The notes: generated from the sequence alone by a model not told the origin. Counted from the stretch's first letter, positions 8,331 through 30,545 are shown. The stretch is 31,595 nucleotides of DNA from an uncultured virus (IMG/VR IMGVR_UViG_3300028888_000089) (IMGVR_UViG_3300028888_000089), one strand, 5' to 3'. Made by a program: numbers and translations.

Positions 8331-11300
8331 TTATGGGATCTGACTACGAACTGCATAATATCCTTGCTCTGCAAGATACTTATCCATTTCAGGTCCAATA
8401 GCAGCAACAACAGAACCCGTTTGAAATACGAATTTCATTTGTTGCATAGCTTCAGCTAATGTTCTAAGATCACTACGCATATTATCTATTCCATCTCTGA
8501 CTTCCCCTATAGCTGATGTATAATCTGTTGGAATTGCCTGATTGGCATAATCATTTACGCCACTTGGATCAATAGCAAGTGTTCCGTCAGCATTCATCGT
8601 TATATAAGGGTTGTTAAGTAAAGCATTTAACTTCTCAGCATCAGTCGATATCTTAGATAAATCAAGAATTGGTGTAATCTTAGGACTGCTATCAAGAGTA
8701 TCTGTTTCGGCAGCAAGAAGTGCCGAACGGCAAAGATTCAGTACAGCTTGTTTTACATCATCTTCTCCGCCAATTATTCCTTTCTTAATACCATCGGAAA
8801 TACTTGTTCCGACTTTTCCAAAATCTAAAGACGGATCGACGTTTATTAATGCAGATATGCCCTCTGTCATATCTCTAAATGCAGAAAAAGCAGAAGAGTT
8901 CTTTATATCTTTTCCATCGAACACGTCGAACCAGTCATCAAACTCTTTAACCATTTGAGCTAAGGGCTCAACGGCACTATCGAATCCTACGGGTTCTCCT
9001 GCGTCATTAACATAAGAATATCCAGTATTCATTGCCTGTAGGAATTCAGCAATATAACCAGCAGCACGTACTGCACTAACCTTAAATGTGGAACCGTCAT
9101 CAGAGAGGTTCTTAGATAAGAAAGATATAACTTCAGAGAAAGACAAAAGATTTCCAACTGCCGATTCAACAAGCTCCGAATTATAAGACTGACCATCTTT
9201 AGTTAAAGCATTAGAGAAGTTAGCCATGCCCTGACCGACTTTCTCAATATCTTCAGCAAGGCTTCCAATCGTTTGCACATGGCCACTAAACCATTGAGAA
9301 ACGCCCTCAATAATTGGCAGACGTCTAGCAATATCACTAATCCTGTCTAAAGCATTTATTGCTTGACTAAATTTTTCAGCTTTCTCATCGTCAAAATTTA
9401 CATTATTTGCAAACTTTCCTAAAGCTTCGCCAAGCTCACCAATATTATTACCGAATTCGGTTAATACATCTGTAGAAGTTATACCTGCTTCTTTAAATAT
9501 AAGAACAGAGCTCAATCTTTCTTTTGTCAGCCTCGTTTTAAGATCGGCAAAGAATGTAAGAGCATCTTTCACATTTTGACTGTAACTAAAGTTCTTAGTC
9601 TTATCAGAGAATTTCTGTAAAGCGATTCCTAAAACTGCGATGTTTACTGCAAAATCTGTTAAAGCATCTGTTGTAACATTTGCACCTGTAAATGCACCAA
9701 TCGGATCTAAACTCGCAACTGTAAGTTTAAGCTTCAAATTTCCCAAGAAGTCCAACAATTCTATCGCTTTGGAAGTATCGCCAAGATCTTGAGATGCGCT
9801 TGCAAATTTTGTCATGGCGGTCGCAAGTGCTGCCAAATCAATTCCAAAATCTCCAAGGACATCGTCTTTTGGTATATTAGGAAGCTCAAAACCGCCATCT
9901 GCTCCAAGGCTGGTTATCACAGAACGCATAAGCTCAACAGCTTTTTGGATATCAGGAACATCTCCTTCCTGTAATCCATCTGCTTCTGTTGCACCTGTCG
10001 CATAAATGCTCAAAGCTCCACCAAGTCCTGCAATATTGTTCTTTAAAGTATCAAGTGGCAGCTTAGATAAAGTATCAAGATTAGTCGCTTGACCAGCAAG
10101 ATCTTGAATCATCTTTATACCGGACTGTATTTTTTCGACGTCTTCCGTGGCAAATGATCCGCCAAATATAGAAAGAGATCCACCTAATTCGGCGACATCA
10201 TTATTGAAATTTCCAATTGAGAAGTTAGAAAATTCGTCCTTATAGGATAATATTTCTTTAATGAATTTTAAGCCTTCGTTATTCTCGGGATCGCTAAGAT
10301 CAGAAGTTGAATACACGAACTGACTTACGCCGTTTCCAAGTTTGAGCATGCAGGTTTCAAAATCATTAATGCCGGAAATATAAGATCCAGCATCTTTTGT
10401 TATAAGTATGATATCCATTAGCTTTTCAAACTTACGCTTTGCTGCATCAAGTTCGCCTTCTGATACTTCGCCCATTCCTCTAGAGAAATCAGCGAACATA
10501 CCACCGACTAAGGCTAATTTAGCCATCATACTTTCAAGACCGCTTCCGATCGCATTCATAACTACAGGAATCATAAGAGCTATTGCGCCCATGACTAAAA
10601 TTATGCCAGCGACCAGCACTCCTATCGCTACTATTCCAGTGGCAACATTCACTTTACTTAAAATAAACAATGCCGCCGCCATTCCAACAATCAAAACTGT
10701 TAAACCAGCGGCAAATGCTAATATTGTTTTTGGATCAACATTCTTTACAGATCTTAATGCCAGTCCAAATGCGCCAAGAACGACAGCTAATGCCACCATC
10801 ATAAGCATCATAGGAATGGCTTTTGTCATGTCCTTGATCTTAGTAAGCCTTGTAATTAACAGCATATACACGGTTATTACGGCCATTATAGATAAACATG
10901 CAGCTACTATCTTATCCCAACTTACATCCTTTACGACAAGGAATAATAATGAGAAAGAAGCGATAACGGCAACCAGTCCAAGCATGACAGATGCAGAGCC
11001 AAGACCCGACTTTACATCTTTTGCTGGTTTAATAAGATGGGTCATGATTATAACCATAGCAATAATGGCCGCTAATCCAGCACCCATCTTACCAAGTTGC
11101 TCCCATTCAAAATTAGCTAATGGTAAAGCGGCCTGGACAAGAGCGTATATCGCACCGGATATTGCTCCAACTCCACCTATGTCACCGATCTTCAATCCGC
11201 TTGTTGTTTTTGTAAATAAAACGATCAAACCTAATAAAACAACTAAACTAGCGCCCATCTTTCCGAGGGATTCCCAGCTATAGTTCGCCAAAGGCTTAAT

Positions 11301-18229: not shown

Positions 18230-20341
18230 TTATTCGCCATCATCGTCGTCTTCTTCGGTTTCGACTTCTTCTTCGATGACAATCGCAGAATAGGGCTTAG
18301 TCAGAGCACCAGAGCAGTAAGTTTCGATCAGATACTTCTGCTGGTTGTAGTCGATGTCGAAGTCTTCGAACATATTGATGCTGCCACCCTTATCGGCACC
18401 AACATTGTAGTCATTCAGGTCAAGAATGATAACCAGCGGCTTATAGGTCTTGTCAGTGGTCTCGTCAACACGAACAGTAGAGCTTTCGCTCATCTGAGGC
18501 ACAAACAGAATTTCTTTCACGCCCAGAGCGCTGGCAATTTCAGAATCATTAGCATAAATGCGCCGACCCTGACGATCCTTCAGCAGCTTCAGACCACTAT
18601 ACTCACGGCGGGTCATCAGAGCAACGCAGTCACCAGTACCCTGATAATCTTCCCAAGCATAAGTAACGGTGTCGACCAGAGCTTCGCCCCTAGGAGTGCC
18701 TTCGGGAACTTCCAGAGTCTTGCGGATAACATACAGCGGGTCATCCTTAAACACAGGAATGATCTTATCTTCCTTAATCTTGTCTTCAGACTCGGGGCTA
18801 CGGCCATCACCAACGATAAAGGCACGAGCCAGTTCCTCGTCCAGCATCATGCGCATTTCGCTCTTCAGCCAAGCGACCTTATCGAAACCTTCGCTGATGT
18901 CAATCATGTCCTGACGATCCAGCTTCTGCTTCTTATAAACCATGTCCGGACCGACTTCACGCTTCAGAAGGGCCAGAACTTCTTCCTTCTTCTTATGGGA
19001 CTTCAGGTAACCCCGCGCACGAGCCTGTGCACCAGTGATATCGGCAAAGGTCATCTTAACCTTAGCAAAGGGAGTATGATGAACACCGCGCATGATCTTG
19101 GACACCCAGGTCGTATCGCGCTTAATGAACTGAGGGGCACCATTTCCGCTAACTTCGCGGTATTCGGGCTGCAGATAATCAATCTGCTCAATTCCATATT
19201 CCTGACTATGCTGGAGAATAGCTTCTTTTAGTGTGCTTTTCATAGCATCACGCTGGATCGTTGCAAGCTGATCATGGGTCAGGGTGTCATTCTGGATTTC
19301 CGTAGCACTGTTGTCAAAAATATTTCTATTCATAGTATAATCCTCTCCTTCTTCGTATGAATGGGAAGCTTCATCATCTTCCTCATCTTCACCATCGTCA
19401 TTGTCTTCTTTAGAAGCTAAAGCCTGAGCAACAAGGAACTCTGTTACCTTGCGCTGTTTTTCAGACATGCTATCGAGCACATCCTGAACCGTACGTTCTC
19501 CTGAATCTGCATGAGAAACGGGTTTCTCTTCTTCAGTTTCATTTCCTTCCTCTGCATCTTCGCCTTCGAGAGCCTGACCGACAAGATATTCAACAACCTG
19601 ACGCTGTTCGTCATTCATTGAATCAAGAACATCCTGAACAGTTTCGTTAGCATCGTCTTCGGAGTCATCAGCATGCTGAATTACAGAGTTCTTTTTGTTC
19701 TTCTCTTCATCGCCTTCGTCGTTTTCATTGCCTTCGCCATCGGTTTCATCTTTGTCTTCACCCTCTGGCTCTTCTTCTACGACTTTTTCATTCTTTTTAG
19801 ATTCTTTTTTTGCATTGGCCTCTTCTTCGTCTTCATCTTCTTCATCCTTTGCAGAATGCTTAAGACTCATTCCGTCGCCCATTTCAAGGCCATCTTCATC
19901 ACCAGGCCAAATATAAGCCTCGGTTTCGCTTTCTTCTCCATGTTCAAGAATCGGGAACTCAATTACTGCCCCAGGATTAGCCCCAGCAAGAACAACACTA
20001 AGTTCTCTAATGGTACCATGGATGACGTCTCCACCACGCTGAGTTAACTTATTAGCAAATATGCTAAGTCCATTAATGTCACCATGACGAATACATTCCT
20101 TGACATGCCTTCCGATGTCAGTACCATTCAAACTGCAATACGCATAAACGCCTTCATTTCGATTTTCAAGTAACGCATGACCGATTACACGAGTAGGGTC
20201 CTCATGATTATGCTGATAAACCAGCGGAACCGTTCGCCCGTCATCGTCCTTAAAGGCGTCTCTTCGAATGGTTCTGCCATCGGCGCAAAGCAGATCATTT
20301 TTAGTTGCCCAGCCACCGAAGTCAAATTTGTTTTTGCTCAT
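18230..20341 (-). CDS. Prohead protease - acidic scaffold - major capsid protein fusion (HK97 fold)
   Basis: N-terminal HK97-type protease motifs (FGGWAT, VPLVYQHNH, GLSIFAN, RELSVVLAGANPGA); D/E-rich linker aa ~135-335; capsid motifs LDEELARAFIVGDG, LKDRQGRRIY and FDIDYNQQKYLIE. Confidence 0.93.
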   Translation of the reverse strand: MSKNKFDFGGWATKNDLLCADGRTIRRDAFKDDDGRTVPLVYQHNHEDPTRVIGHALLENRNEGVYAYCSLNGTDIGRHVKECIRHGDINGLSIFANKLTQRGGDVIHGTIRELSVVLAGANPGAVIEFPILEHGEESETEAYIWPGDEDGLEMGDGMSLKHSAKDEEDEDEEEANAKKESKKNEKVVEEEPEGEDKDETDGEGNENDEGDEEKNKKNSVIQHADDSEDDANETVQDVLDSMNDEQRQVVEYLVGQALEGEDAEEGNETEEEKPVSHADSGERTVQDVLDSMSEKQRKVTEFLVAQALASKEDNDDGEDEEDDEASHSYEEGEDYTMNRNIFDNSATEIQNDTLTHDQLATIQRDAMKSTLKEAILQHSQEYGIEQIDYLQPEYREVSGNGAPQFIKRDTTWVSKIMRGVHHTPFAKVKMTFADITGAQARARGYLKSHKKKEEVLALLKREVGPDMVYKKQKLDRQDMIDISEGFDKVAWLKSEMRMMLDEELARAFIVGDGRSPESEDKIKEDKIIPVFKDDPLYVIRKTLEVPEGTPRGEALVDTVTYAWEDYQGTGDCVALMTRREYSGLKLLKDRQGRRIYANDSEIASALGVKEILFVPQMSESSTVRVDETTDKTYKPLVIILDLNDYNVGADKGGSINMFEDFDIDYNQQKYLIETYCSGALTKPYSAIVIEEEVETEEDDDDGE

Positions 20342-20365: not shown

Positions 20366-21712
20366 TTAAGGTATGTCTGCTACCTTCATTTCTGCGAGCG
20401 TAGGTTCGCCGCTGTTGTCCTCATCATAGTCCTCTTCATATTGAGAATCGTCATACTCTTCACCATCTGGAGAAGGTTCCATTGGCATCTCTCCTTCATG
20501 AGGATTAATATTCGGATTGCTCAACTGATTTGCAACCTGGTCATCAACCGGAGCATAGCCAAGCTTCTGTCTAAGTTCATTACGAGTTATGACTTCGCTG
20601 ATAACCAATTGGCTACCATTGGTGGCGATACTATCCATGGTTGCCAACTTGAAAATGTCGTTGAAGTACATAATCCGTTGATTCCTAGATCTAGCTGTCT
20701 TGGTTAAGAACTTTCGATTGAATTCCTCGGTTATCACAGCTACAATGGGTTCGATTGTACGGTTAATATAATTCAGCCAAGTTCGTTCGTCAGCAGTTCC
20801 CTCAAAGACTTCCTTCGTCATCCCTAACTGGCTATAAAGCATGCTCGTTAAGTACTCGATCTGGTCTAAGAGTTTGTTCTCGACACTTCGATTAAGCTGA
20901 GTTACTTTCTCCGTACCATCTGTGTAAGCAATGCCGTACCTATTTGTCATCAGCTGAGTTTCGATATCTCTACGACGTTTCTCAGCCTCCTGCCTTCTCA
21001 ACTCGGTTTTGATCGTGTACGGCAGTTGAATAATCAAATCGAGTTTTCCGCTTGATGATTGTTCATCAACAGCGTCAAGAAGATTTAATTTATAAATAAG
21101 CCGTTTCAAAGTAGAAATCGGCTCATTCATAACAGCATATAAAGGGTTTTCTATGATAGCAATTGTATCTTTAGGTAAGGTTAAATTCTCATGTTGGCCG
21201 GTTCTATCGTTATATAAATCAACCTTAACATGTCTAGGAAACCATTCAACGATCTTACCAACCCTTAGACTCTCTATGTCATAACTTCCGGAATATGTTC
21301 CTTCTTTCATAGGACTCCTGCTTGTATCAACTGGAACAACAGCAACAGATCCTTCATCAAGCATACTCGCAACAAGATCCTGCTTAAATGCTCTAGCTGT
21401 CTGGTCTATATTAGATTCAACATTCAAACAATAATTCAATCCGGAATTTATGACTTCAACAAATCGGTCATCTTGGTCCAATTTCACATGCTGGATCTTA
21501 ACACTCGCGACATCTATAGCAATTCGTGTATATATGCCAGCCAAGATTGATCGTTCATTGCCATAGCGAAATTTTATTCTGTCTGGACGAGAATAAAAAA
21601 CAGGACCTAAGTCCTGCTTAATTATTTCTTTCTGTTCTCTTCCAAGGAATGCGTTCCAGCCATGACGGAGTCTCTGCCCAAGAGTTAAAGCATCCTGCTT
21701 CATTTCACTCAA
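20366..21712 (-). CDS. Portal protein (HK97 family)
   Basis: RIAIDVASVKIQH, LNVESNIDQT, YINRTIEPIV..ITEEFNRK and ITRNELRQKLGY motifs; directly upstream of the protease-capsid gene. Confidence 0.93.
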   Translation of the reverse strand: MSEMKQDALTLGQRLRHGWNAFLGREQKEIIKQDLGPVFYSRPDRIKFRYGNERSILAGIYTRIAIDVASVKIQHVKLDQDDRFVEVINSGLNYCLNVESNIDQTARAFKQDLVASMLDEGSVAVVPVDTSRSPMKEGTYSGSYDIESLRVGKIVEWFPRHVKVDLYNDRTGQHENLTLPKDTIAIIENPLYAVMNEPISTLKRLIYKLNLLDAVDEQSSSGKLDLIIQLPYTIKTELRRQEAEKRRRDIETQLMTNRYGIAYTDGTEKVTQLNRSVENKLLDQIEYLTSMLYSQLGMTKEVFEGTADERTWLNYINRTIEPIVAVITEEFNRKFLTKTARSRNQRIMYFNDIFKLATMDSIATNGSQLVISEVITRNELRQKLGYAPVDDQVANQLSNPNINPHEGEMPMEPSPDGEEYDDSQYEEDYDEDNSGEPTLAEMKVADIP

Positions 21713-21742: not shown

Positions 21743-21937
21743 TTAAGCATTTCTCTTGCTTGCTTTATCTGCTTTGCGCTTTTTTACGGAGTTATATGCC
21801 CAAGCGGTGGTATGTCCAGCAGCAGAAATACCAGAGCCAATAGAAACTCCAGTCGACACTGTCGCCAATAAGCTAGTGGGGCCTTTAACTCCATAATGGC
21901 AAAGAAAATATGGAGAATTTTTAAACGATGTTGGCAC
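21743..21937 (-). CDS. Leader-family gene 8: truncated leader fused to a short hydrophobic/basic peptide (possible deletion remnant)
   Basis: MPTSFKNSPYFLCHYGVKG then departs from the family consensus; GTG start with AGGAG RBS; 30 nt identical to the 5' end of 21976..22647. Confidence 0.65.
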   Translation of the reverse strand: MPTSFKNSPYFLCHYGVKGPTSLLATVSTGVSIGSGISAAGHTTAWAYNSVKKRKADKASKRNA

Positions 21938-22635
21938 GTCATCAACTCCTATTGATTAAAATCGTTTTATTTAGTTTACATCCAACGATATAATCCACTA
22001 GAATTAATATAATTCCAAAACAATTCATCTTGTTTACTTAATGGCAGATCGTTGAAATTGGGATATTGTTTTTCTAAATCAGAGTATGCTGTGCTAATCG
22101 CTTTTTTAGAGCTCATTTTCTTTGTTCCGTATTTTTCACTGCGGGGATCAATATAGTCCGGATCATTATTTGGTGACGTTTTAGAATCATTTTGTTTATT
22201 CTTTTTATTTTCTTTTTCTTTCTGTTTTTTAACTTTTTTTTCAAGTTCTTTAACGTCATCATCAGCGCTAGTGTTATAGAACACCATCTCATTTAGCCAC
22301 TCTTTACCGACTATTGTTTTTGGATCGGTTTTCATATCTTTGGCTAAAGTTTCTACAAAATTTTTCTTATAGGCATCAACAACTTCTTTTGTGTATTCTA
22401 AATTGTTAATATCCTGATTTAAATCTACTTTTTCATATTTTTTATTTATTTTCTTAAGATCCCTGTTCATATTATCAACGGATCTATTATAAAGCTCGAC
22501 CTGTTTGCCGATATCTTCGATATACCGTCTACGGCCTTCTTCAGTTAGTGTTCCATCTTCATTCTGAAACCTTCGAACGCCCCAATGTTGACCTTTGATG
22601 CCATGATGGCAAAGAAAATATGGAGAATTTTTAAA
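21896..22635. repeat. 30-bp exact direct repeat in the leader-coding regions (21896-21925 and 22606-22635)
   Basis: atggcaaagaaaatatggagaatttttaaa occurs at both positions. Confidence 0.9.
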
Positions 22636-22647
22636 AGACATTGGCAT
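21976..22647 (-). CDS. Leader-family gene 7: soluble K-rich helical body
   Basis: MPMSFKNSPYFLCHHGIKGQHWGVRRFQNEDGTLTEEGRRRY leader. Confidence 0.85.
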   Translation of the reverse strand: MPMSFKNSPYFLCHHGIKGQHWGVRRFQNEDGTLTEEGRRRYIEDIGKQVELYNRSVDNMNRDLKKINKKYEKVDLNQDINNLEYTKEVVDAYKKNFVETLAKDMKTDPKTIVGKEWLNEMVFYNTSADDDVKELEKKVKKQKEKENKKNKQNDSKTSPNNDPDYIDPRSEKYGTKKMSSKKAISTAYSDLEKQYPNFNDLPLSKQDELFWNYINSSGLYRWM

Positions 22648-22654
22648 ATGCGCA

Positions 22655-23206
22655 TCACCTCATCCTAGAAAGATCAATTTTCATCCACGATGCAGTTTTC
22701 ATACTGTCAATAAAACTGTCAGCTTTTGCTTTATATGCCTGATTCATTTTTCCTTTAATGACTCCAATAGCAGTCGCAACCAAAATAGCAGATGCTGTTT
22801 TTCCGAGCCATTCCGCTGCCTTACGCTTATTACTCTTGGTAAGGTTCTTGTATTGCTGTTCACGTTGAAGTCTACTATTTCTTCTATTTAATTCAGCATC
22901 ACTTAAAGTACTAGCATCTTTACTTTTCCAAGTAGAGCTTTCTGGTTTTTCTTTTTTATTTGAACCTTTAACTTTTTTAACACTTGACGTTTTAATTTTA
23001 TCTACTCTAGACAATATTTTATTGAGTTTAGACGAACTTTTTCCAGGACCCATTTGGCCAGGGCTACGTTTTTCTTCTAAATAATGCCGCTTTCCAGCTG
23101 CTGTTAATTCACCGTTTCTATAATAAAGTCCAGCACCCTTTTTACCAGAGCGCCCAGGTTGGCCCCAATGAATTAAATATGACGATCGATTTTCCACTAG
23201 CGTCAC
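22655..23206 (-). CDS. Leader-family gene 6: basic protein with LSDAEL...RLQRE helix and a hydrophobic segment
   Basis: SSYLIHWGQPGRSGKKGAGLYYRNGELTAAGKRHY leader; the start may be GTG at 23197 (MENRSS). Confidence 0.82.
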   Translation of the reverse strand: MTLVENRSSYLIHWGQPGRSGKKGAGLYYRNGELTAAGKRHYLEEKRSPGQMGPGKSSSKLNKILSRVDKIKTSSVKKVKGSNKKEKPESSTWKSKDASTLSDAELNRRNSRLQREQQYKNLTKSNKRKAAEWLGKTASAILVATAIGVIKGKMNQAYKAKADSFIDSMKTASWMKIDLSRMR

Positions 23207-24552
23207 CCCATTAAATTATTTAAAATTTCTTTATCCGTCAATTTTGTTCCAGGATGCTCTTTTTTGTATTCGCGAATAAGTCTAAGATTTGCCTGAGATC
23301 TTACTCCAGCTGCTACTTTTTTATTTGACTTTTTAGTATCTTCCGTTGAAGTCTTATTTTTATCTTTAGCGGCTTTTATAGTTTTCTTCCAATCAGGTTT
23401 TAATTCGGCACAGACAATACCTGCATTTTCCCATTTGACTTCCTTGTCGTCTAATCTAATAGCCTGAGTAGCACTAGGCTGGAAAAATGATAGTTCCTCA
23501 TCAGTTAGTTTTCTTTTAGTATTGCATTGAGCATCATATATCTCCATTTTTCCATCTTGAATCTCAAAAGCCATAGCATGCCCACCGAAAATAGAAGAAA
23601 CCGTTATCATTCCTCTAGATCCTTCTGGGTATTTAGATTCGCATTTGCGATATACTTCAGACCAGTTTTTTCCTCCAATGTTATCTAGCTTTTTGCCAGC
23701 GCCTTCATAAAGATCCTGGACGAGTTTATCGCCATACATCCCTGTTTCACATAATTTCGCTGTTACATCATATCCTCTACGACGTAAGTCATATGTCAAA
23801 CTGCATAAAGCACAGTTACTAGAATTTCCTTTAACAGCCAAATCAAATTTAGGATTAACGGCAGCCATATCAGATTCTCTAGTATGATCTCCTTTTATCT
23901 TCTTAGGAGGTTCATCTGCCGTAAACTGTTGTTTACTAGTAATATCTGAAAGATAGTCTTCAGAAATTTGATCGTTTTGCTCTTTATACTTTTTATGATT
24001 CTTATTTTTTCTAATTGGAGCATATATTTTGCATCCGATTATAAATGCAGCTATAGCTGTTGCTTCTGCAGCATAAGCAACAATTACTGGATCGACCGCC
24101 CCTACTTTATTTTTATCAGTGCCTTGACTAGCTACAACTTCTTTGTGTGTTTTAGCATCTAAAGGGTAAGGCGGGCCATTTTTCTTTCCCCAGGATTGTC
24201 CAGGAATACCATAATGCATCAAATATTCAGTAGTTCTTTTTACATTATAGTAATTTGACGTAACAGAAATACTATGTTCTATTTTTTGATCTTCAGGATG
24301 AATTTTATATGGGTTTTTAAGGAGCTTCATCAATTCCTTATCTTTAAGAACTACTCCTAACGGTATTGAACCGGATGCACCGCCATCTTTAGGATCAAAC
24401 AATCTGAATTCAATATTGGCTTCTGATCTGTCTACTCCTCTGGGGGCTAAACTAAATAGGTACATATCTTTATAGGGGATATAATAAATTGGATACATAT
24501 CCGGATAAATTTCTTTAACTTTAGATATGCTCTCCTTAAGACTCAAAGCCAT
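23203..24552 (-). CDS. Leader-family gene 5: N-terminal ~90-aa domain + internal leader + hydrophobic helix + papain-fold (Tox-PL-like) Cys-His-Asp domain
   Basis: Internal YLMHYGIPGQSWG (His113); NCALCSLTYDLRRRGYDVTA (Cys247), GGHAMAFE (His325), IYDAQ (Asp340). Confidence 0.8.
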   Translation of the reverse strand: MALSLKESISKVKEIYPDMYPIYYIPYKDMYLFSLAPRGVDRSEANIEFRLFDPKDGGASGSIPLGVVLKDKELMKLLKNPYKIHPEDQKIEHSISVTSNYYNVKRTTEYLMHYGIPGQSWGKKNGPPYPLDAKTHKEVVASQGTDKNKVGAVDPVIVAYAAEATAIAAFIIGCKIYAPIRKNKNHKKYKEQNDQISEDYLSDITSKQQFTADEPPKKIKGDHTRESDMAAVNPKFDLAVKGNSSNCALCSLTYDLRRRGYDVTAKLCETGMYGDKLVQDLYEGAGKKLDNIGGKNWSEVYRKCESKYPEGSRGMITVSSIFGGHAMAFEIQDGKMEIYDAQCNTKRKLTDEELSFFQPSATQAIRLDDKEVKWENAGIVCAELKPDWKKTIKAAKDKNKTSTEDTKKSNKKVAAGVRSQANLRLIREYKKEHPGTKLTDKEILNNLMG

Positions 24553-24570
24553 ATATTATACCTCCTATAA

Positions 24571-25266
24571 TTATCTATTTCGCATAAAATCAGCAAAGGC
24601 ACTGCTTCCTGAGGAACTACCGGGGTGCCAATCATATCCGCCATAATATTTAGCATTCTTAATTTTCGATAAAACAGTCCTTGCTTTATTAGCAATCATC
24701 TTATCAGCACCTGTTGATTTAGCAATGTTAACAATAGCAATAGCAGCAATAGACGTCGTTCCGACTCCAAGAAGTAGATTTTTTATGCCGCGACCAACGC
24801 GCTTTACTTTTTCTTTTGTGTCTTGTGTTTTTCTTTCCCTATTTGCTGCTTTCTGATGCTTTTCCATATCCTGCTTAGACAACTCTTGCTCAAATGCTTT
24901 CTTATAATCAGGATCCTTCATTTTTTCACTTATAAGATTTTTAATCTTCTTGCGTCTTGTCCCGGCTCCATCGCCATAATACGCTTTAGCGCGTGCATAT
25001 TCAGAAGCATCTTTTGAAGCTTCATGCTTAATCTTTTTATAGTTTTTGCTTCCATCAGCATTTATAAAATGAGATGTTTTAGTGTTATTTGTTGTTTGAC
25101 TTTGTGAACCTTCATTCTGGGATGGTTCGTGTCCATACTTTTCCATATAATAATGGCGATAGCCTTCTTCGGTAAGCTGACCATTTTTATACCAACGACC
25201 AGCTCCAACTTTGCCAGAACGACCAGGCACTCCATAATGGATTAAATATGAAGATTTATTATACAT
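24571..25266 (-). CDS. Leader-family gene 4: basic protein with a hydrophobic segment
   Basis: Start corrected to ATG 25266 (GAGGTG RBS): MYNKSSYLIHYGVPGRSGKVGAGRWYKNGQLTEEGYRHY; also EYARAKAYYGDGAGTRRK and LLLGVGTTSIAAIAIV. Confidence 0.82.
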   Translation of the reverse strand: MYNKSSYLIHYGVPGRSGKVGAGRWYKNGQLTEEGYRHYYMEKYGHEPSQNEGSQSQTTNNTKTSHFINADGSKNYKKIKHEASKDASEYARAKAYYGDGAGTRRKKIKNLISEKMKDPDYKKAFEQELSKQDMEKHQKAANRERKTQDTKEKVKRVGRGIKNLLLGVGTTSIAAIAIVNIAKSTGADKMIANKARTVLSKIKNAKYYGGYDWHPGSSSGSSAFADFMRNR

Positions 25267-25287
25267 GTATCTCACCTCTTAAAAGTA

Positions 25288-25923
25288 TTATTTAATCCCA
25301 TACTTTTTCAACAAGTCGGAATTAGATCTGTCAAATCTGCTTGTCGCTTTTCCCAATTGCCTGGCCTGCTTTTCTTGCAATTGCTTTATCTTCTCTAAAT
25401 TACGTTGGGCTTTTGCTATCTTATCATCAGTTCTGGCCATTTTATGCTCATTAGCAAGAACTTTCTTAGCTGCTCTAGAATTTCTCTTTATAGAGCTAAT
25501 ATACTTATGCTGTTTCCTTCTGCTACTTAAGTCTATGTCTTTGCCAGCCGATTTAAGTATCATTGACTTCTTCAGTTGGCCACGCTTATGAATACCATAA
25601 GCAGCAACGGCAGCTAAAGTAACTGCGCCAGCAGCGATCATAATTTTCTTAGCTTTTTCTTTTCTTGCTTTTTCCTGAGCTTTTGTCTCTTTTTTAGATT
25701 TTGTTTTAGTTACATTAGACGATGCGATCCTTTGCTTTATGGCGTTGCCAACAGCTCGAATGGCATCGGCGCCTCGATTGAAATCAGATTGCCTATACTG
25801 CTCTTCGCGTTGACGCTGTCCTTCTGGGGTCAATGAACCATCTTCATTTTGAAAACGACGAATACCCCAGTGCTGGCCTTTTATACCAAAGTGAATTAAA
25901 TAATCATTATCCTCGTACAACAT
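25288..25923 (-). CDS. Leader-family gene 3: very basic protein with one hydrophobic helix
   Basis: MLYEDNDYLIHFGIKGQHWGIRRFQNEDGSLTPEG leader; IMIAAGAVTLAAVAAYGI; paralog of 25942..26679. Confidence 0.87.
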   Translation of the reverse strand: MLYEDNDYLIHFGIKGQHWGIRRFQNEDGSLTPEGQRQREEQYRQSDFNRGADAIRAVGNAIKQRIASSNVTKTKSKKETKAQEKARKEKAKKIMIAAGAVTLAAVAAYGIHKRGQLKKSMILKSAGKDIDLSSRRKQHKYISSIKRNSRAAKKVLANEHKMARTDDKIAKAQRNLEKIKQLQEKQARQLGKATSRFDRSNSDLLKKYGIK

Positions 25924-26637
25924 AAAAGGCCTCCTGATATGTCAAATTCTGCCAATGGCGTGTATATTTCTAGCTGCCAACTTACGAGATTTCTCTATAG
26001 TATGCTTTGATAACGGCTTTAATTTTCCAGTTATCTTACTTTTAGTAAATCCTTTTTCTATGCCAATCGGACCAAGTCGCTTTTCGATAATATCAGCCAT
26101 ATTTTGAGATGCTAATTTATTGTTTTTAATATATCTACTTGCATCTTTTCTGGTCATATGAAGTGCTTTTCTAGCAGAACGTCGACCTCTTATTTTGGCC
26201 ATTTCTTTAACTCGTTTTACCGCAAGATTCTCTTGCTCTTTTGCTGTCAAAAATCTCGTATCTTTTGGGGTATATTCAGCATGCACCTTATTTTTTGCAA
26301 TTTCCATTAAGTTAGCTGTTGCTTTTTCTCTGCGATGAAGCGCATATGCTCCAGCAGCCGCTAAAGTGACTGCACCAGCTGCAATCAAAATTTTCTTAGC
26401 TCTATCTTTTCTTGCCTTTTCCTGAGCTGGTGTCCCTTTTTTAGGTTTGGATTTAGTTATATTAGATGGCGTAATTTGACGTCTCTGAGAATTTCCAACA
26501 GAGCGTATTGCATCTGTTCCGCGTTTAAAATCGTGACTTCTATATTGGTCATAATATTCAGCACGTTGACGCTGTCCTTCTGGCGTTAACGAACCATCTT
26601 CATTTTGAAAACGACGAATACCCCAGTGCTGGCCTTT
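25835..26637. repeat. 47-bp exact direct repeat in the leader-coding regions (25835-25881 and 26591-26637)
   Basis: gaaccatcttcattttgaaaacgacgaataccccagtgctggccttt occurs at both positions; similarity extends through the RBS (GGAGGCCTTTTATG). Confidence 0.9.
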
Positions 26638-26679
26638 GATGCCATAATGAACTAAATAATCGTTATCTTCGTATAGCAT
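25942..26679 (-). CDS. Leader-family gene 2: very basic protein with one hydrophobic helix
   Basis: MLYEDNDYLVHYGIKGQHWGIRRFQNEDGSLTPEG leader; ILIAAGAVTLAAAGAYAL. Confidence 0.87.
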   Translation of the reverse strand: MLYEDNDYLVHYGIKGQHWGIRRFQNEDGSLTPEGQRQRAEYYDQYRSHDFKRGTDAIRSVGNSQRRQITPSNITKSKPKKGTPAQEKARKDRAKKILIAAGAVTLAAAGAYALHRREKATANLMEIAKNKVHAEYTPKDTRFLTAKEQENLAVKRVKEMAKIRGRRSARKALHMTRKDASRYIKNNKLASQNMADIIEKRLGPIGIEKGFTKSKITGKLKPLSKHTIEKSRKLAARNIHAIGRI

Positions 26680-26696
26680 AAAAGGCCTCCTATGAA

Positions 26697-27263
26697 TTAT
26701 AAGTCTTTAATTATTTCATCATTGGAATTGACAATATACTCTAAACGATGCTCTATATAATGGTTTTTTTCGTTTTCTACGATCATATGGTCAATGATTA
26801 TCAAAAAATCTTCGTACTCTAATTTTCTCTGTGAAATTTCAATAATAGAAAACTTATCAGAATCCATATACTCATCTAAAGCGAATCCTCGACTTCTTAT
26901 CATTATACTTTTATCAAAATTTGCTATTCCATATTTGATATCAAGTCCGGATTCAATAGTTTCATAATCTCCTGTTTGAATAGTTCCGCTTTCAGAGTAT
27001 ACTATTCGAATTCCATTTAGTTTATTGTTCGTAAAAATGTAGACTAGTGCGCTTTTAGGTATTCCAGAAAGGGCAATATTTTTAGCAAAGATATAATAAG
27101 AGGACTTAGTGAATAATCCTTCAACTTCTTTGTTAAACACCTCATCTATAGAATCTCCAAAGTGAATCCCGTTTCTATATTCAAATATAGTAGGTGCTTC
27201 CGAATATGAAACGCTAGGAATAATTAATAAAATTGCTAATAATATTAGTAAAAATTTCCTCAT
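26697..27263 (-). CDS. Secreted/exported hypothetical protein (moron-like)
   Basis: Sec-type signal peptide MRKFLLILLAILLIIPSVSYSEA; AGGAGG RBS; AT-rich; lacks the family leader. Confidence 0.8.
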   Translation of the reverse strand: MRKFLLILLAILLIIPSVSYSEAPTIFEYRNGIHFGDSIDEVFNKEVEGLFTKSSYYIFAKNIALSGIPKSALVYIFTNNKLNGIRIVYSESGTIQTGDYETIESGLDIKYGIANFDKSIMIRSRGFALDEYMDSDKFSIIEISQRKLEYEDFLIIIDHMIVENEKNHYIEHRLEYIVNSNDEIIKDL

Positions 27264-27289
27264 TGCATACTTCCTCCTAAATATACAAA

Positions 27290-29044
27290 TTACTCGAATG
27301 CATCTGTATTTAATTTATAAGCAACGTATGCATCAATTAATGCCGCAACAGAGTCGATCTTTTGATCGGACCGCTTTTTCTGCAGCTTTCTGTTGCCATT
27401 TGTGTCTTCAAGTGTAACAGCATTTCCCATTGTGAACATCATGATTTGCTGATCGAATATAAGCATTCTTTCTGCACAAATCTTTTTAATTTCGCCAATC
27501 GGAACACTCTCGGTTTTTGCACCTTGGATTACTTTCTCAACACCAAATTCGCCATTTTCGCGAATCCATCTTTCAACGAAAGCTCTCGCGTTATATGGGT
27601 CGAATCCAAAGCAACGAATATCGTATTGGCAATCTGAAATATATCGATCGAGATCATCATATACGTCCATCATTTCTAGAACTGTGCCTTCCATGATGAT
27701 AAGACTACCTTCATTTATGAAATCATCATACTTTATTCTTAATGCAGCCGAGAGCTTACTTAATGTGAATGAAGTAATATAACATCTGGTTTTCACACCA
27801 TATTGCCCACGTCCTAATGGGAATAAGAAAGTAAATGCACAGAAGTCATCGCCCTGTGACAAGTCTGCACCCATAGCGCATGGCATATTCCAGAAATCTC
27901 TTCTTCTATGTGGTATAGTTTCTTCATACTTAAAGAAGAACGTATAACCTTCAGACGGAATATTAAATCTCTTAGCGAGCATGTCATTCTTATAAGCAGG
28001 TGCATTCTCCGCTTTCTCAATATCTAACAAATATGTTTCGAATGTGACTGTTTTACCTAGATTAGGATTAGCTTTAAGCCACACCATAGGATCGGTCTTT
28101 CCAAGTTCGACTTCTTTAATATCATCAAGCTTGTAATACCAAATCGAAACATGCGGATTAATGTACTCGCCTCTTAAAATGCTCTCGAGCTCCATCTTAA
28201 TTGTATCACCAGGGCCATTACGAACCGTACCTTCGGAACTAGCAGCAACGATAAGATAGTCATCGTTCTTAGAAGCACCTTGCTCAAGAGAGCCGATAAC
28301 ATCCTCACGAATAACACCAGAAAGCCACTCGTCGACTGTTGCAATTTTACAACGAAGACCCTCAAGTTTATCGATAGACATTGGCCGGATTTCGAGAATA
28401 GAGTTTGTAAGAAAATTTTCAATACCTTTCTTTGTAGAAGCTATCTTCTGCCTATCCGCTTTACTACCAGTTGTATTTTGAAGTGATCCGTCAGTCATAA
28501 ACTTAAGCAACGGACCTCTAGCTCGAGCTATGGCTGTTCTTAATGGCGACATAACTTCATTAGCCTGCTTCATAGTAGGAGCAGTTGTAATTTGTTGCGT
28601 CGTAGAAGTGTCAACAATTAAGAAATATGCCTGAATAAAGGCCATATACATAGACTTAGCAGCAGCTCTAGGAATAACCAAAAACTGCTTATTAATGAGC
28701 CTCTTTTTTACTCTTCTTGTTTCATAATGTATGGACTTTCCATCGGGACTTGTTACGGCCACACTTCTTGTTACAAAGTAGTACCAACCAAATACCTGCT
28801 CAGCCCATAATTTAAAAGTATCCAAAAGAAAAAGATCTGACCCATCAGTTAAGGTCAGCTCATTTTCGCAAAAAGCAATAAAACCATTTATTGCATCTTC
28901 GTCGTAATAATATTGAGGATCCCTTATGAGGGCGTCTATCCTCGTCATTTCCATCGAGATCTCACGGCACACCGGAATCTCTCCACGTAGTACCTGGTCC
29001 CGGAATTTTCCATAATAATATGGAGTTGCCGTGTTTGACAGCAT
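27290..29044 (-). CDS. terL: Terminase large subunit
   Basis: Walker A-like IPRAAAKS, Walker B ATVDEW, coupling motif AASSEG, nuclease MGADLSQGDDF, FDPYNA, C-terminal KIDSVAALIDAY. Confidence 0.95.
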   Translation of the reverse strand: MLSNTATPYYYGKFRDQVLRGEIPVCREISMEMTRIDALIRDPQYYYDEDAINGFIAFCENELTLTDGSDLFLLDTFKLWAEQVFGWYYFVTRSVAVTSPDGKSIHYETRRVKKRLINKQFLVIPRAAAKSMYMAFIQAYFLIVDTSTTQQITTAPTMKQANEVMSPLRTAIARARGPLLKFMTDGSLQNTTGSKADRQKIASTKKGIENFLTNSILEIRPMSIDKLEGLRCKIATVDEWLSGVIREDVIGSLEQGASKNDDYLIVAASSEGTVRNGPGDTIKMELESILRGEYINPHVSIWYYKLDDIKEVELGKTDPMVWLKANPNLGKTVTFETYLLDIEKAENAPAYKNDMLAKRFNIPSEGYTFFFKYEETIPHRRRDFWNMPCAMGADLSQGDDFCAFTFLFPLGRGQYGVKTRCYITSFTLSKLSAALRIKYDDFINEGSLIIMEGTVLEMMDVYDDLDRYISDCQYDIRCFGFDPYNARAFVERWIRENGEFGVEKVIQGAKTESVPIGEIKKICAERMLIFDQQIMMFTMGNAVTLEDTNGNRKLQKKRSDQKIDSVAALIDAYVAYKLNTDAFE

Positions 29045-29084
29045 TCTATTGCCCTCCTTTCAAAGCAAATGGAATGCATAGGAT

Positions 29085-30140
29085 TTAGTCCCATTTAATA
29101 TGATCGACTAGCTCTTGAAGAGTTTCGCCTGGTTTTTGTTCTTTATCATTAAAGTCTCCAAATGACAAACTGGAATATTTTTTATTATTTCCAAATTCTC
29201 CAGTTTTATGTGCTTTTTTAATTTCTTTCTTTATAGCATCTACACTATCGTATTCTTTGACGCCAGCTCTATCAGCCCAGGCATTTTCCACCCAGTATGT
29301 TTTATTATTCTTAATAAAATATACTAAACTGTGCGTCATTCCACCTTTATCGCCAAGATGTTCCATGACAAAAAGAGCTTTTGGATCGAGGCCTAATTTT
29401 CTAAGCTCTCTAAGTTCATACATGACTTGATCGTGGCACGATCCTTTTCTTTGTTTACTAACAGCATCTGGAGACATTAATGTTGTAAATTCTTTGTATT
29501 TAAAATCTTTCATAGATTGGGCAACTTTATCCGCTTTTATTTGTTGCTCATCTACCCAGTCATCTTTATCTTTTCTATTTATGCTAAATACTTTAACATC
29601 TTTACTTTGATCAATTAATCTAGATACGTTTTTACGTGTGGCACTAGCCCCGTCTTCAATTACAACTGCCAATCCGACAGTGGCTGCTTTTGTCATCGCT
29701 TCGTCTTTTTTAGCTAGCCATTCTTTTGACCCAGGCTCATGATCAGTATCATTTATAGGATGGGTTTTCCATTTTTTATTTGCCGAATATCTAACACTTG
29801 TTCCTGGGCCATATACTTCAACTCGTTCGTATTTCTTTGAATTCAAATAATCTTGAACTTGTCTATCAATCCCAGGAGCATCTCCAACTACAAATTTGCT
29901 TCCGCTTTCTATAGCTTCATCGATCTCATCGCGAATTTCTTTCGGAAGCTCTTTTCTATAATACTCTGATTCTTTATCCTGTGTCTTTGATGATCCAGAA
30001 ATAAAAACAACATCATTTTTAGAGTATCTGTGTTTCCCTTCTTGCGTAAGCGTTCCGTCTTCGTTTTGAAATCGACGAACACCCCAACGCTGGCCTTTAA
30101 TGCCATAATGGACTAAATATAAGTTGTCTTCGTATAGCAT
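29085..30140 (-). CDS. Leader-family gene 1: leader + SLOG/YspA-like domain + transglutaminase/papain-like domain
   Basis: MLYEDNLYLVHYGIKGQRWGVRRFQNEDGTLTQEG; VFISGS...FVVGDAPGIDRQVQDYL...KDEAM...ATRKNV (SLOG-like); GSCHDQ (Cys235), THSLVYF (His270), YWVENAW (Glu285). Confidence 0.75.
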   Translation of the reverse strand: MLYEDNLYLVHYGIKGQRWGVRRFQNEDGTLTQEGKHRYSKNDVVFISGSSKTQDKESEYYRKELPKEIRDEIDEAIESGSKFVVGDAPGIDRQVQDYLNSKKYERVEVYGPGTSVRYSANKKWKTHPINDTDHEPGSKEWLAKKDEAMTKAATVGLAVVIEDGASATRKNVSRLIDQSKDVKVFSINRKDKDDWVDEQQIKADKVAQSMKDFKYKEFTTLMSPDAVSKQRKGSCHDQVMYELRELRKLGLDPKALFVMEHLGDKGGMTHSLVYFIKNNKTYWVENAWADRAGVKEYDSVDAIKKEIKKAHKTGEFGNNKKYSSLSFGDFNDKEQKPGETLQELVDHIKWD

Positions 30141-30155: not shown

Positions 30156-30545
30156 TTAACATTCCGTATGCGGGTTGTTGTCGTAATTTACAAATGAGAA
30201 CTTTTTAACAGACTCGGCCTGCATGACTATACGCTGTTCATACTCCGTGCATCGATCTTTCATAGCTTCCATCACATAGGAATTTCCAGGAGGATCGAAT
30301 ATCATCTTAACTTTCATATATACGTATTCCTGAACAGCATTTAACATAACCTCATTTGAGGAAAGAAAATCAGACCATGTTTTGGAATTATCTCTAATTG
30401 AGAAACCTTCTTCGGGACCGACGCCAAGTTGAGTCAACGTCATGAAAGCCGAGTTGATTAAAATTATGATGTCCATATCAAATGGCGTATAGTCATCCTT
30501 AATGCCGAGTAATTTCTTTATCGTTGCAAGAATGCTTTCACTCAT
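30156..30545 (-). CDS. Head-tail adaptor/connector (gp6/gp15-like)
   Basis: SILATIKKLLGI..DYTPFD.DIIILINSAF..L.QLGV and YVYMKVKMIFDPP helical adaptor signature. Confidence 0.75.
   Translation of the reverse strand: MSESILATIKKLLGIKDDYTPFDMDIIILINSAFMTLTQLGVGPEEGFSIRDNSKTWSDFLSSNEVMLNAVQEYVYMKVKMIFDPPGNSYVMEAMKDRCTEYEQRIVMQAESVKKFSFVNYDNNPHTEC

Follow-up and report, generated by a model that had tools for sequence, protein, structure and literature searches.

Eight genes in the head module of an uncultured phage share a short leader peptide in front of bodies that, one pair apart, are unrelated, and we put the probability that this leader sends the proteins into the capsid at about 0.5. On this reading the eight genes would encode internal head proteins of a siphophage resembling Lactococcus phage 1706, which would be co-assembled, processed and ejected. 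The leader array is a hallmark of the 1706-like head module rather than a local oddity and is carried by cultured phages of two phyla, Firmicutes and Actinobacteria. The window analyzed is the whole stretch of 31,595 nucleotides from the uncultured virus IMGVR_UViG_3300028888_000089.

Leader genes of the window and their neighbors

Six-frame translation of the whole stretch gave exactly 8 matches to [YF]-L-x-H-[YFHW]-G-x-[KP]-G, all in minus-strand ORFs and at the start coordinates of the original prediction (29085, 25942, 25288, 24571, 23203, 22655, 21976, and 21743). These ORFs, numbered 1 to 8, and the neighboring head genes are as follows.

30156..30545, minus strand: connector-like virion protein (Phage_connect_2, 119 bits; phrog_4247, "virion structural protein"), opening the conserved block
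29085..30140, minus strand: ORF1, 351 aa, between the connector gene and terL; leader aa 1-37, SLOG-like part about aa 41-190, transglutaminase-like Cys-protease fold about aa 195-351
27290..29044, minus strand: terminase large subunit, TerL (TerL_nuclease, 107.5 bits; phrog_9), with leader genes on both sides
26697..27263, minus strand: leaderless ORF, 188 aa, signal-peptide-like N-terminus, interrupting the array
25942..26679, minus strand: ORF2, 245 aa, pI 10.5; leader, basic linker, hydrophobic segment; DUF7211 at 23.7 bits, E 3.2e-5
25288..25923, minus strand: ORF3, 211 aa, pI 10.4; DUF7211 at 20.6 bits, E 2.9e-4
24571..25275, minus strand: ORF4, 234 aa; variant leader, conserved helical body (phrog_6291), hydrophobic segment
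23203..24552, minus strand: ORF5, 449 aa, two-module protein; N-terminal domain aa 1-90, I-E-H-S junction aa 91-94 (nt 24271-24282), internal leader with its core from aa 110 (nt 24175-24225), then hydrophobic segment and papain-fold domain aa 246-344
22655..23206, minus strand: ORF6, 183 aa, pI 10.4; variant leader, basic body, hydrophobic segment; matches the profile derived from the window's leaders
21976..22647, minus strand: ORF7, 223 aa; leader and soluble, mostly polar body; DUF7211 at 25.5 bits, E 8.4e-6
21743..21937, minus strand: ORF8, 64-aa stub; first half of the leader joined straight to a short hydrophobic and basic tail
20366..21712, minus strand: portal (Phage_portal, 68.9 bits; phrog_12), directly downstream of the array
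18230..20341, minus strand: protease-capsid fusion, 703 aa (Peptidase_S78, Phage_capsid, phrog_3270); prohead protease S78, acidic scaffold-like linker, major capsid protein; hydrophobic-x-H-[SA] sites starting at aa 160, 221, 275, and 325, a looser form at 354 and 376
19307..19924, minus strand: linker of the protease-capsid fusion (aa 140-345), pI 4.1

The peptide had been described as a shared leader. It is N-terminal in 7 of the 8 ORFs; in ORF5 it is internal, with a 93-aa N-terminal domain ahead of it and its first residue at position 110, and ORF8 has only half of it. Continuation to G-x-L-T-x-x-G was confirmed in 6 of the 8, ORF5 and ORF8 being the exceptions. The core of about 17 aa reads [YF]-L-x-H-x-G-[IV]-x-G-x-x-W-G-x-R, often followed by RFQNEDG-x-LT-x-EG, so that leaders measure 17-40 aa, and an N-terminal place in the primary product is not obligatory. 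A suspicion that the leader might match an uncharacterized DUF was correct: it is Pfam DUF7211 (PF23847), a 25-position family without assigned function, of which no mention was found in the literature searched. ORF1 scored 28.0 bits, above the gathering score of 27; three further ORFs matched below it (25.5, 23.7, and 20.6 bits; E 8e-6 to 3e-4), and ORFs 4, 5, 6, and 8, with leaders too divergent for the DUF7211 model, had no Pfam match at E <= 0.01. A profile made from the window's own leaders matched all 8 ORFs and recovered thousands of PF23847-annotated proteins. Leader DNA is repeated among the array genes at 62-87% identity, and the 5' 55 nt of ORF8, a stub also retained in the relative L008, are 87% identical to the 5' end of ORF7. 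Confidence for the leader was low in 2 AF2 models (pLDDT 38-67 in ORF1 and 49-61 in the other), and the peptide is thus predicted to be disordered alone, as expected of a segment that folds upon a partner.

Body-versus-body BLASTP of all 8 proteins agreed with the claim that the bodies differ except for one paralog pair: only ORF2 and ORF3 matched significantly (65% identity over 74 aa, E 1e-19), with E above 0.1 for all other pairs. These two genes also have a common 148-nt DNA repeat at 86% identity and are, judging from their sequences, true paralogues. The bodies have unrelated folds (SLOG alpha/beta, papain-like, and helical bundle), and in this respect the leader is as portable as had been proposed. 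Both predicted domains of ORF1 were recovered in an AF2 model (pLDDT 87), with Foldseek probabilities of 1.00 to ShosA, DprA, and YpsA for the SLOG part and to CPR-C4, LapG, and vasohibin for the transglutaminase-like part; in its homologues (n = 861), the two domains are also met separately, and either then has a leader of its own. The predicted papain-like domain of ORF5 is Pfam Gln_amidase (PF15644; 26.2 bits against a cut-off of 24.1). The expectation of a single basic membrane-helix body failed, with an Ala/Gly-rich hydrophobic segment in 5-6 of the 8 proteins (Kyte-Doolittle 19-aa means 1.3-2.0); hydropathy profiles gave no such segment in ORF1 or ORF7. The pI is 9.0-10.5 in 6 of the 8 proteins, compared with 4.1 for the protease-capsid linker.

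The terL-portal pair is separated by 5,577 bp, matching the anticipated interruption of about 5.6 kb. All 8 predicted leader genes belong to the array, and the gap additionally holds the leaderless ORF 26697..27263, which had no Pfam or PHROG match and, among the loci compared, was found elsewhere only in the near-identical relative L008. The holin and NlpC/P60 genes lie 20 kb from the array. The window's TerL shares 57-72% identity with its counterparts in 1706-like phages and actinophages, and the next matches are at about 26%.

Distribution and conservation in related phages

Seeding by the leader motif only gave 73 viral and 30 genomic loci, or 102 after the window's own near-copy was dropped. 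Every one of the 102 carries a 1706-type head gene (TerL, portal, connector, or protease-capsid fusion), with TerL present in 95, and 75 loci seeded by the ORF4 body are likewise tied to the head module. Together with the cultured phages of two phyla described below, these loci bear out the predicted association of leader homologs with head modules. At least 1 leader gene was identified in 59 of 67 terL-portal intervals and in 61 of 72 connector-terL intervals, and none of 330 leader genes lay on the strand opposite terL. Array size between terL and portal ranged from 0 to 9 genes, varying widely even among close relatives. All 17 leader matches in 5 whole bacterial genomes fell on one contig per genome, and neither the 150 other genomes sampled from the class nor the 14 control genomes contained the motif; its bacterial occurrences are restricted to prophage head modules.

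In the cultured Rhodococcus phage ReqiPepy6, the terL-portal interval holds 7 genes, every one of them encoding a DUF7211 protein (51-58 bits), and gp020 is annotated as "hypothetical membrane protein". DUF7211 was also identified in gp16, gp18, and gp19 of Gordonia phage OhMyWard and in AUV56562 of Faecalibacterium phage FP_oengus. ORF7 of Lactococcus phage 1706, located between the connector gene and terL, has two DUF7211 stretches (41.8 bits). Its record carries the annotation "structural protein", a label that may rest on mass spectrometry, and the neighboring ORFs 14-16 are labelled "hypothetical".

Calling the bodies unrelated cassettes is right for their folds and otherwise goes too far: many relatives keep orthologues of the ORF4, ORF5, and ORF6 bodies, and several bodies are conserved core genes, not free cassettes. 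ORF4 is a core array member: it matches phrog_6291 (E 4.2e-33), its body matches 150 actinophage records and 302 representative clusters, and the leader accompanies that body in 73 of the 75 body-seeded loci. An ORF4-type gene stands just before the portal gene in all three cultured phages inspected (ReqiPepy6, OhMyWard, and SscP1EGY). Residues 79-170 of ORF4 were modeled by AF2 at pLDDT 93-98, and the predicted structure had no PDB match. Orthologues of ORF5 were found in 19 loci, fused to the ORF6 body in 3 of them, and the ORF6 body was present in 26 loci. Scanning of 100 non-redundant relatives identified papain-fold toxin 1 (PF15644) in 9 and an ADP-ribosyltransferase exoenzyme (PF03496; 84.5 bits) in 1, with DUF7211 the sole Pfam domain in 88; combinations of GNAT, ADP-ribosyltransferase, and transglutaminase-core domains also occur in relatives. 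Toxin-like or enzymatic domains fused to the leader thus recur, as had been anticipated, and such bodies look like delivered enzymes.

Polyprotein forms, junction motif, and known systems

The best 120 of 6,766 leader-profile matches contain 3-6 leaders each at a median spacing of 231 aa, and in 117 of these 120 the first module's leader directly follows the start codon. The separate-gene array and the polyprotein are equivalent forms. Of the 177 distinct 40-aa stretches that precede internal leaders, 134 contain the motif H-[STDAM], compared with 18.5% among random 40-mers; its logo is hydrophobic-K-H-S-D-hydrophobic, and its favored spacing from the leader is 7-11 or 21-22 aa. The motif is absent in the other 43 stretches, and the junctions of one relative (L024) read H-Q and H-E/H-K. 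The junction pattern, as hydrophobic-x-H-[SA], occurred 206 times in 41 protease-capsid fusions, most of them in the linker, against 29.0 +/- 4.8 in shuffled sequences (maximum 42). TerL had 7 occurrences with 13.5 expected, and portal had 42 with 8.8 expected; there the pattern also falls in a conserved N-terminal motif that does not imply a cut site. The actinophage OhMyWard keeps the pattern in gp22 and at the gp18 junction. Since the junction motif is the same as that in the protease-capsid linker, it suggests that the prohead protease cuts the polyproteins inside the capsid. No hydrophobic-x-H-[SATD] was found behind any of the 8 window leaders, its sole near-leader occurrence in the window being 16 aa in front of the internal leader of ORF5. 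Because there is no protease-type site behind it, the leader seems to be kept on the mature protein.

The internal proteins and Alt of phage T4 carry an N-terminal capsid-targeting sequence of about 10 aa that is cut off by the prohead protease. The array resembles this system in having a short peptide common to unrelated, basic proteins encoded with head genes, an ADP-ribosyltransferase among the presumed cargo of the window's relatives, and a putative role for a prohead protease. The T4 analogy of the original prediction is unsupported where leader removal is concerned. The leader of 17-40 aa is unrelated in sequence; the motif search gave no site just behind any of the 8 window leaders, which are seemingly kept, and the putative sites stand in front of internal leaders. 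The T4 peptide lies at the extreme N-terminus; 7 of the 8 window leaders are N-terminal, one starts from residue 110, and many are internal in relatives. The window phage is also a siphophage of Gram-positive hosts with a protease fused to its capsid protein.

Head-module location and variable toxin-like C-terminal domains are shared with MuF-fused toxins and SPP1 gp7-type minor head proteins, but the 33 window proteins scanned gave no Pfam match to the MuF (phage head morphogenesis) domain. As in polymorphic toxins, a variable C-terminal toxin domain follows a constant part (PF15644 here; PF15644 and PF03496 in relatives), but no immunity gene and no small leaderless ORF follows ORF5, where a leader gene comes next, or ORF1, where terL does.

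In the description drawn on here, polyvalent proteins of phages and conjugative elements are single polypeptides with many effector-type domains, and their genes lie among the virion genes of portal-terminase phages (Iyer, Burroughs, Anand, de Souza, Aravind 2017, PMC5512222). Their defining features are MuF, portal, or other anchor domains together with embedded peptidases, and packaging, injection, and release by proteolysis have been proposed for them. By that description, the array is encoded among virion genes of a portal-terminase phage, ORF1 has at least two effector-type domains (SLOG and transglutaminase-like protease), ORF5 has two modules, and relatives have 3-6, with GNAT and papain-fold domains. 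Unlike the polyvalent proteins so described, each module here has its own DUF7211 leader, the window spreads the same content over separate genes, and the junction motif matches the prohead protease-capsid linker; papain-like bodies are present, and no MuF domain is found in the window. P22, T7, and the giant phages phiKZ and SPN3US are reported to have sets of head-internal proteins that a prohead protease processes at a short consensus and that leave the head with the DNA (PMC5694885, PMC10052503). The proposed set of head-internal proteins, some with hydrophobic segments, is similar to the ejection or core proteins so described, and differs in virion type and in having no sequence relation to them. 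We know of no shared leader module in the internal proteins of these four phages.

Proposed route into the head and alternative readings

We propose that the leader docks on an inner procapsid component, probably the acidic helix-repeat linker of the protease-scaffold-capsid fusion or, alternatively, the portal, and that docking would bring unrelated basic proteins into the head during its assembly. The fused S78 protease would cut hydrophobic-x-His-Ser/Ala sites in its own linker and between polyprotein modules, the latter represented in the window by the I-E-H-S site of ORF5 and in relatives by up to six modules, so that each module would obtain its own leader, retained near the new N-terminus. 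The basic proteins would remain with the DNA after packaging and may exit via the tail when a cell is infected. Those bearing an Ala/Gly-rich hydrophobic helix would be destined for the membrane. The enzymatic members would act on host targets; in the window they are the SLOG and transglutaminase-like protease and the papain-fold domain, and relatives have ADP-ribosyltransferase and GNAT. Parts of this route face objections: processing could be the work of an embedded papain-like peptidase rather than of the prohead protease, the hydrophobic segments of 5-6 of the 8 bodies would suit infected-cell membrane proteins just as well, and the leader is kept and repeated in each polyprotein module, which a pure loading tag would not need.

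DUF7211 proteins could instead serve the structure or assembly of the head, for instance as a portal-associated core, plug, or DNA-end holder, with the leader as common assembly interface and the enzymes acting in the particle or during assembly without being delivered. The orthology of the ORF4, ORF5, and ORF6 bodies, the retention of the ORF4 body across Firmicutes and Actinobacteria phages, beside the portal in the three inspected and with a leader in 73 of 75 loci, the 88 of 100 relatives without a further Pfam domain, and the "structural protein" label of phage 1706 ORF7 all agree with this. We nevertheless think it unlikely, as array content and copy number vary widely among close relatives (0 to 9 genes between terL and portal) and papain-fold toxin 1, ADP-ribosyltransferase exoenzyme, and GNAT domains recur, both typical of conflict proteins rather than of structural ones. 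Late-expressed, unpackaged membrane or cytoplasmic proteins of the infected cell, serving superinfection exclusion, lysis timing, or assembly anchoring with a leader that binds a cytoplasmic partner, would account for the single Ala/Gly-rich segment in 5-6 of the 8 proteins and for the annotation of ReqiPepy6 gp020. This is quite improbable given that the genes always lie within the packaging/head block and never in the lysis block and that the ORF1 and ORF7 bodies are soluble; the label of phage 1706 ORF7 and the junction motif shared with the protease-capsid linker also count against it.

The spacing of the His-Ser/Asp motif before internal leaders (7-11 or 21-22 aa) and the recurrence of papain-like bodies in arrays would also suit a leader whose sole role is to direct polyprotein cuts, as exosite or processing signal for the prohead protease or a papain-like member. 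Most leader genes, however, are single-module with the leader right after the start codon and nothing to cut (7 of 8 in the window; 117 of 120 first modules), and no site stands behind the leader, making this a very improbable sole function. A relic of tandem-paralogue descent, or a host secretion signal of the WXG type, with no phage-specific targeting, would explain the ORF2-ORF3 paralogy, the leader DNA repeated at 62-87% identity, and the W-G present within the leader. We give this almost no credence: the body folds are unrelated, the same body domains bear separate leaders in relatives, which needs domain shuffling, and the motif is absent from the 150 other sampled genomes of the class and the 14 controls, its bacterial copies lying only in prophage head modules.

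Beyond internal head proteins of a 1706-like siphophage, we would tentatively, and with more doubt than belief, extend the packaging reading to DUF7211 as a transferable head-loading and delivery tag of one phage lineage across Firmicutes and Actinobacteria, any bearer of which, be it the product of a separate gene or a polyprotein module released at His-Ser/Ala junctions by the capsid-fused prohead protease, would be packed into the capsid and injected ahead of or with the DNA. If this is true, several hundred cultured phages would have capsids that act as natural, programmable vehicles for protein delivery, with an effector repertoire that evolves fast.

The shared leader and the proteins that carry it

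We identified the leader, a short and mostly N-terminal peptide of the form [YF]-L-x-H-[YFHW]-G-x-[KP]-G, exactly 8 times in the six-frame translation of the window, once in each of the 8 ORFs expected to carry it and nowhere else, and its continuation into G-x-L-T-x-x-G was borne out in 6 of the 8 copies. The observation of an 8-gene array with a shared leader is therefore confirmed. The window makes up a siphophage structural and lysis block with every gene on the minus strand, in the following order:

Gene 1 (-): small phrog_4259 protein
Gene 2 (-): HNH endonuclease
Gene 3 (-): connector-like virion protein
Gene 4, 29085-30140 (-): leader gene 1 (ORF1)
Gene 5 (-): TerL
Gene 6, 26697-27263 (-): 188-aa signal-peptide ORF
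Genes 7-13 (-): leader genes 2-8, at 25942-26679 (ORF2), 25288-25923 (ORF3), 24571-25275 (ORF4), 23203-24552 (ORF5), 22655-23206 (ORF6), 21976-22647 (ORF7), and 21743-21937 (ORF8)
Gene 14, 20366-21712 (-): portal
Gene 15 (-): 703-aa fusion of S78 prohead protease, acidic linker, and major capsid protein
After the fusion gene, 8331-15284 (-): tape measure (TMP_3), among the tail genes
After the tape measure, 2591-3760 (-): collagen-repeat (collagen-like) tail fibre
Last (-): holin and NlpC/P60 lysin

The tape measure is a very long protein of 2,317 aa. As predicted, the bodies (the remainder of each protein) included a single paralog pair, ORF2 and ORF3 (65% identity over 74 aa, E 1e-19), with all other pairs at E >0.1. 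Other details of the original prediction needed amendment. The terL-portal gap measured 5,577 bp and holds 7 of the 8 leader genes, but also a leaderless ORF; the leader is N-terminal except in ORF5, where it begins at residue 110, and is full length except in ORF8, a 64-aa stub. Hydrophobic Ala/Gly-rich segments, first noted in a single body, were present in 5 or 6, and 6 of the 8 proteins had a pI of 9.0-10.5. In the stub (21743-21937, -), the leader breaks off halfway and passes into a short tail that is hydrophobic and basic. Over its first 55 nt the gene shares 87% identity with the neighboring leader gene, and the close relative retains the stub. The leaderless 188-aa ORF between terL and the leader array (26697-27263, -) has a signal-peptide-like N-terminus and no Pfam or PHROG match. 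Among all loci it was found only in the window's near-identical relative, and it may therefore be a moron, for example an exclusion lipoprotein.

The suspicion that the leader matches a domain of unknown function proved correct: Pfam DUF7211 (PF23847, 25 positions) matched 4 of the 8 leaders, one of them above the cut-off, and the 4 divergent leaders were matched by a profile of the window's own leaders. All PHROG families matched by leader proteins lack a known function, and the leader was of low confidence in both AF2 models (pLDDT 38-67 and 49-61). Neither "DUF7211" nor 4 typical 8-residue motif strings were found in the literature searched, and PDB sequences gave no match to the leader profile (E <= 10) or to a profile of the protease-capsid fusion. 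A relationship to ribosomal protein L27 and Prp-type processing was dropped, with no similarity seen, as was a type VII secretion signal, the motif being phage-only.

We analyzed the bodies by domain search and structure prediction. ORF5 matched papain fold toxin 1 in Pfam (26.2 bits against a cut-off of 24.1). The ORF1 model, folded by AF2 with 40 homologues (pLDDT 87), had a first domain matched by Foldseek to the SLOG proteins ShosA, DprA, and YpsA, and a second matched with probability 1.00 to the transglutaminase-like cysteine proteases CPR-C4, LapG, and vasohibin. In ORF4, a helical body (aa 79-170) was modeled confidently (pLDDT 93-98, AF2), with no PDB match at E <= 0.001 in Foldseek. 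Bodies of ORF4 (found in 15 of the first loci and in 150 actinophage records), ORF5 (19 loci), and ORF6 (26 loci) are conserved, so the array is in part a stable core, not a cassette. Further, aa 1-90 of ORF5 (24283-24552, -) form a 90-aa domain ahead of the junction and internal leader, conserved in 6 loci, which could be a pro-domain or inhibitor freed by cleavage. For a census, 346 leader genes were reduced to 159 non-redundant representatives of at least 190 aa, and the 100 longest were scanned at E <= 1e-4. Precomputed Pfam labels of homologues added combinations with GNAT, transglutaminase core, ADP-ribosyltransferase, and DUF5662.

Table. Domains in 100 leader-protein representatives
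Papain fold toxin 1: 9
ADP-ribosyltransferase exoenzyme: 1 (84.5 bits)
Helix-turn-helix: 1
DUF6582: 1
Nothing other than DUF7211: 88

Occurrence of the array in one phage lineage

A pattern from the alignment of 4 window leaders retrieved 73 loci from viruses and 30 from bacterial genome assemblies, most of the latter from gut Clostridia; counts leave out the window's near-copy (L008) and the separately fetched cultured-phage loci (L081-L083). The expected tie to head modules held throughout, with at least 1 head gene homologous to the window's in 102 of the 102 remaining loci (TerL in 95, connector in 78, portal in 77, and fusion protein in 68). Gene order was constant, with the connector, 0-5 leader genes, TerL, 0-9 leader genes, portal, and fusion protein, and the 7 leader genes between terL and portal place the window at the upper end of the range. 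Leader genes occupied 59 of 67 terL-portal and 61 of 72 connector-terL intervals, and none of 330 lay on the strand opposite terL. A second search, seeded with the ORF4 body motif rather than the leader, returned 80 loci, 75 of them new; the new loci had the same block, and 73 of their 75 ORF4-type genes carried the leader. In a subgroup (L146, L148, L152, L159, and L181-L188), the HNH and connector genes were relocated between the array and the portal, giving the order small protein, leader gene, TerL, 2 leader genes, HNH, connector, leader gene, portal. The portals at L012:9676-11910 and L058:6943-9138 were 744 and 731 aa long, compared with ~420-450 elsewhere, and each had a very basic C-terminal extension.

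The leader motif was rare among sampled genomes of the host class, with matches in the centre genome only out of 151, and in 5 whole bacterial genomes all 17 leader matches fell on a single contig per genome. TerL was 57-72% identical to relatives of Lactococcus phage 1706 and to Streptomyces, Gordonia, Arthrobacter, and Rhodococcus phages, with the next matches at ~26%. At a TerL identity of at least 57%, the lineage has ~250 cultured members, among them many SEA-PHAGES isolates as well as a Faecalibacterium phage that is prevalent in the human gut. Leader genes numbered from 1 to >10 per genome, and thousands of metagenomic proteins also carried the leader. The lineage is the Actinobacteria-Firmicutes phage group of bioRxiv 10.1101/842583, and leader genes are not mentioned in the part of that preprint available to us. 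DUF7211 was identified by Pfam in the following cultured members:

Rhodococcus phage ReqiPepy6: all 7 genes between terL and portal (51-58 bits)
Gordonia phage OhMyWard: gp16, gp18 (2 leaders and GNAT), and gp19
FP_oengus: the single gene ahead of the portal
Lactococcus phage 1706: ORF7 (2 copies)

The leader array is a hallmark of one phage lineage; it puts a Pfam DUF to a use that is real, extends across the lineage, and has not been described so far.

Polyproteins and a predicted prohead protease site

With the leader profile, 7,999 candidates were scored and 6,766 proteins passed E <= 0.001. The top 120 of these were 319-1,872 aa long with 3 (58 proteins), 4 (48), 5 (10), or 6 (4) leaders each, a leader stood at the start of 117, and the median leader spacing was 231 aa, about the size of the window's separate genes. 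Orthologues of ORF5 and ORF6 formed one 638-aa protein in 3 loci, and the 2 domains of ORF1 occurred apart in other loci, each behind its own leader. Gene array and polyprotein are therefore interchangeable forms.

Among 177 distinct 40-aa stretches before internal leaders, 134 contained H-[STDAM], against a frequency of 18.5% in 40-mers drawn at random from these proteins. The junction logo was hydrophobic-K-H-S-D-hydrophobic, 7-11 or 21-22 aa ahead of the leader, and window ORF5 has I-E-H-S 16 aa ahead of its internal leader. The same motif, as hydrophobic-x-H-[SA], recurs throughout the acidic linker in each of the protease-capsid fusions, and we compared its counts with 200 shuffles.

Table. 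Hydrophobic-x-H-[SA] in head proteins
Protease-capsid fusion, 41 unique sequences: 206 observed; shuffle mean 29.0 +/- 4.8 (max 42)
TerL, 57 unique sequences: 7 observed; shuffle mean 13.5
Connector, 47 unique sequences: 2 observed; shuffle mean 3.2
Portal, 44 unique sequences: 42 observed; shuffle mean 8.8

The portal value (42 against 8.8) is due to a conserved N-terminal motif shared by portals of the lineage (L010-L079), of the form R-L-K-H-A-W-N-A-F and present in the window as R-L-R-H-G-W-N-A-F (20366-21712, -). This motif agrees with the consensus of the junctions but is not necessarily a site. The looser hydrophobic-x-H-[SATD] occurred 15 times in the window's 10,053 aa, with 8 of the 15 in the fusion protein. 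In OhMyWard, the junction motif persists in the fusion protein as well as at the junction of gp18. The window linker has a pI of 4.1, with 75 acidic against 19 basic residues. This linker, aa 140-345 of the fusion (19307-19924, -), holds 2 tandem ~54-aa helical repeats, each bounded by hydrophobic-x-H-[SA], and relatives have 1-3 such units.

Because the fusion must be cut in the linker to free the capsid protein, we infer that hydrophobic-x-H-[SA] is a predicted site of the fused S78 protease. Read as its substrates from their junction sequences, the polyproteins would be placed inside the procapsid. About a quarter of the junctions lack the motif, and those of locus L024 have a different sequence; the polyproteins could instead be processed by the papain-like array member.

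Probable virion location, proposed loading, and relation to known systems

ORF7 of phage 1706, which carries the 2 DUF7211 copies, is labeled "structural protein" in the phage record, and ORFs 14-16 of the same record are labeled "hypothetical." Garneau et al. 2008 reportedly assigned these labels from gels and mass spectrometry. The FP_oengus paper contains no proteomics, an Arthrobacter phage paper includes no mass spectrometry and mentions only the fused capsid-protease gene, and nothing on phage 1706 ORF7 appears in the Metavir 2 paper or in a review of lactic acid bacteria phages. We consider that the leader proteins are probably located in the virion.

In the mechanism we propose, the leader would dock basic cargo proteins onto an inner procapsid component, with the acidic helix-repeat linker as the favored partner, and the fused protease would cut the linker and the polyprotein junctions. 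Cargo would then remain with the DNA and exit via the tail at infection, where hydrophobic members may work at the membrane, and those with enzymatic bodies on host targets. We put the probability that the leader is a loading signal at about 0.5, and regard injection of the cargo as a tentative proposal, somewhat below even odds. That the leader proteins are membrane proteins of the infected cell would also fit, as the hydrophobic segments agree equally with that reading.

How proteins are packaged and injected is well documented for T4, P22, T7, N4, P1, and giant phages. To our knowledge, descriptions from siphophages that infect Gram-positive bacteria are poor. The closest known kinds of system to the proposed leader-based loading are the T4 internal proteins with their capsid-targeting sequence, MuF-fused toxins, the ejection proteins of P22, T7, and giant phages, and polyvalent proteins, as covered by the available part of PMC5512222. 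The window falls outside the MuF class because it has no MuF domain. The T4 targeting peptide is cut off, but no site was found behind the window's leaders; the leader here thus seems to stay attached, with each polyprotein module retaining its own. The system is allied to head-packaged cargo and polyvalent protein systems and carries a predicted cleavage rule. If the leader is a loading tag, it would point directly to candidate injected proteins for anti-defence or takeover, predict where the prohead protease of the lineage cleaves, and offer a handle to load foreign proteins into phage heads.
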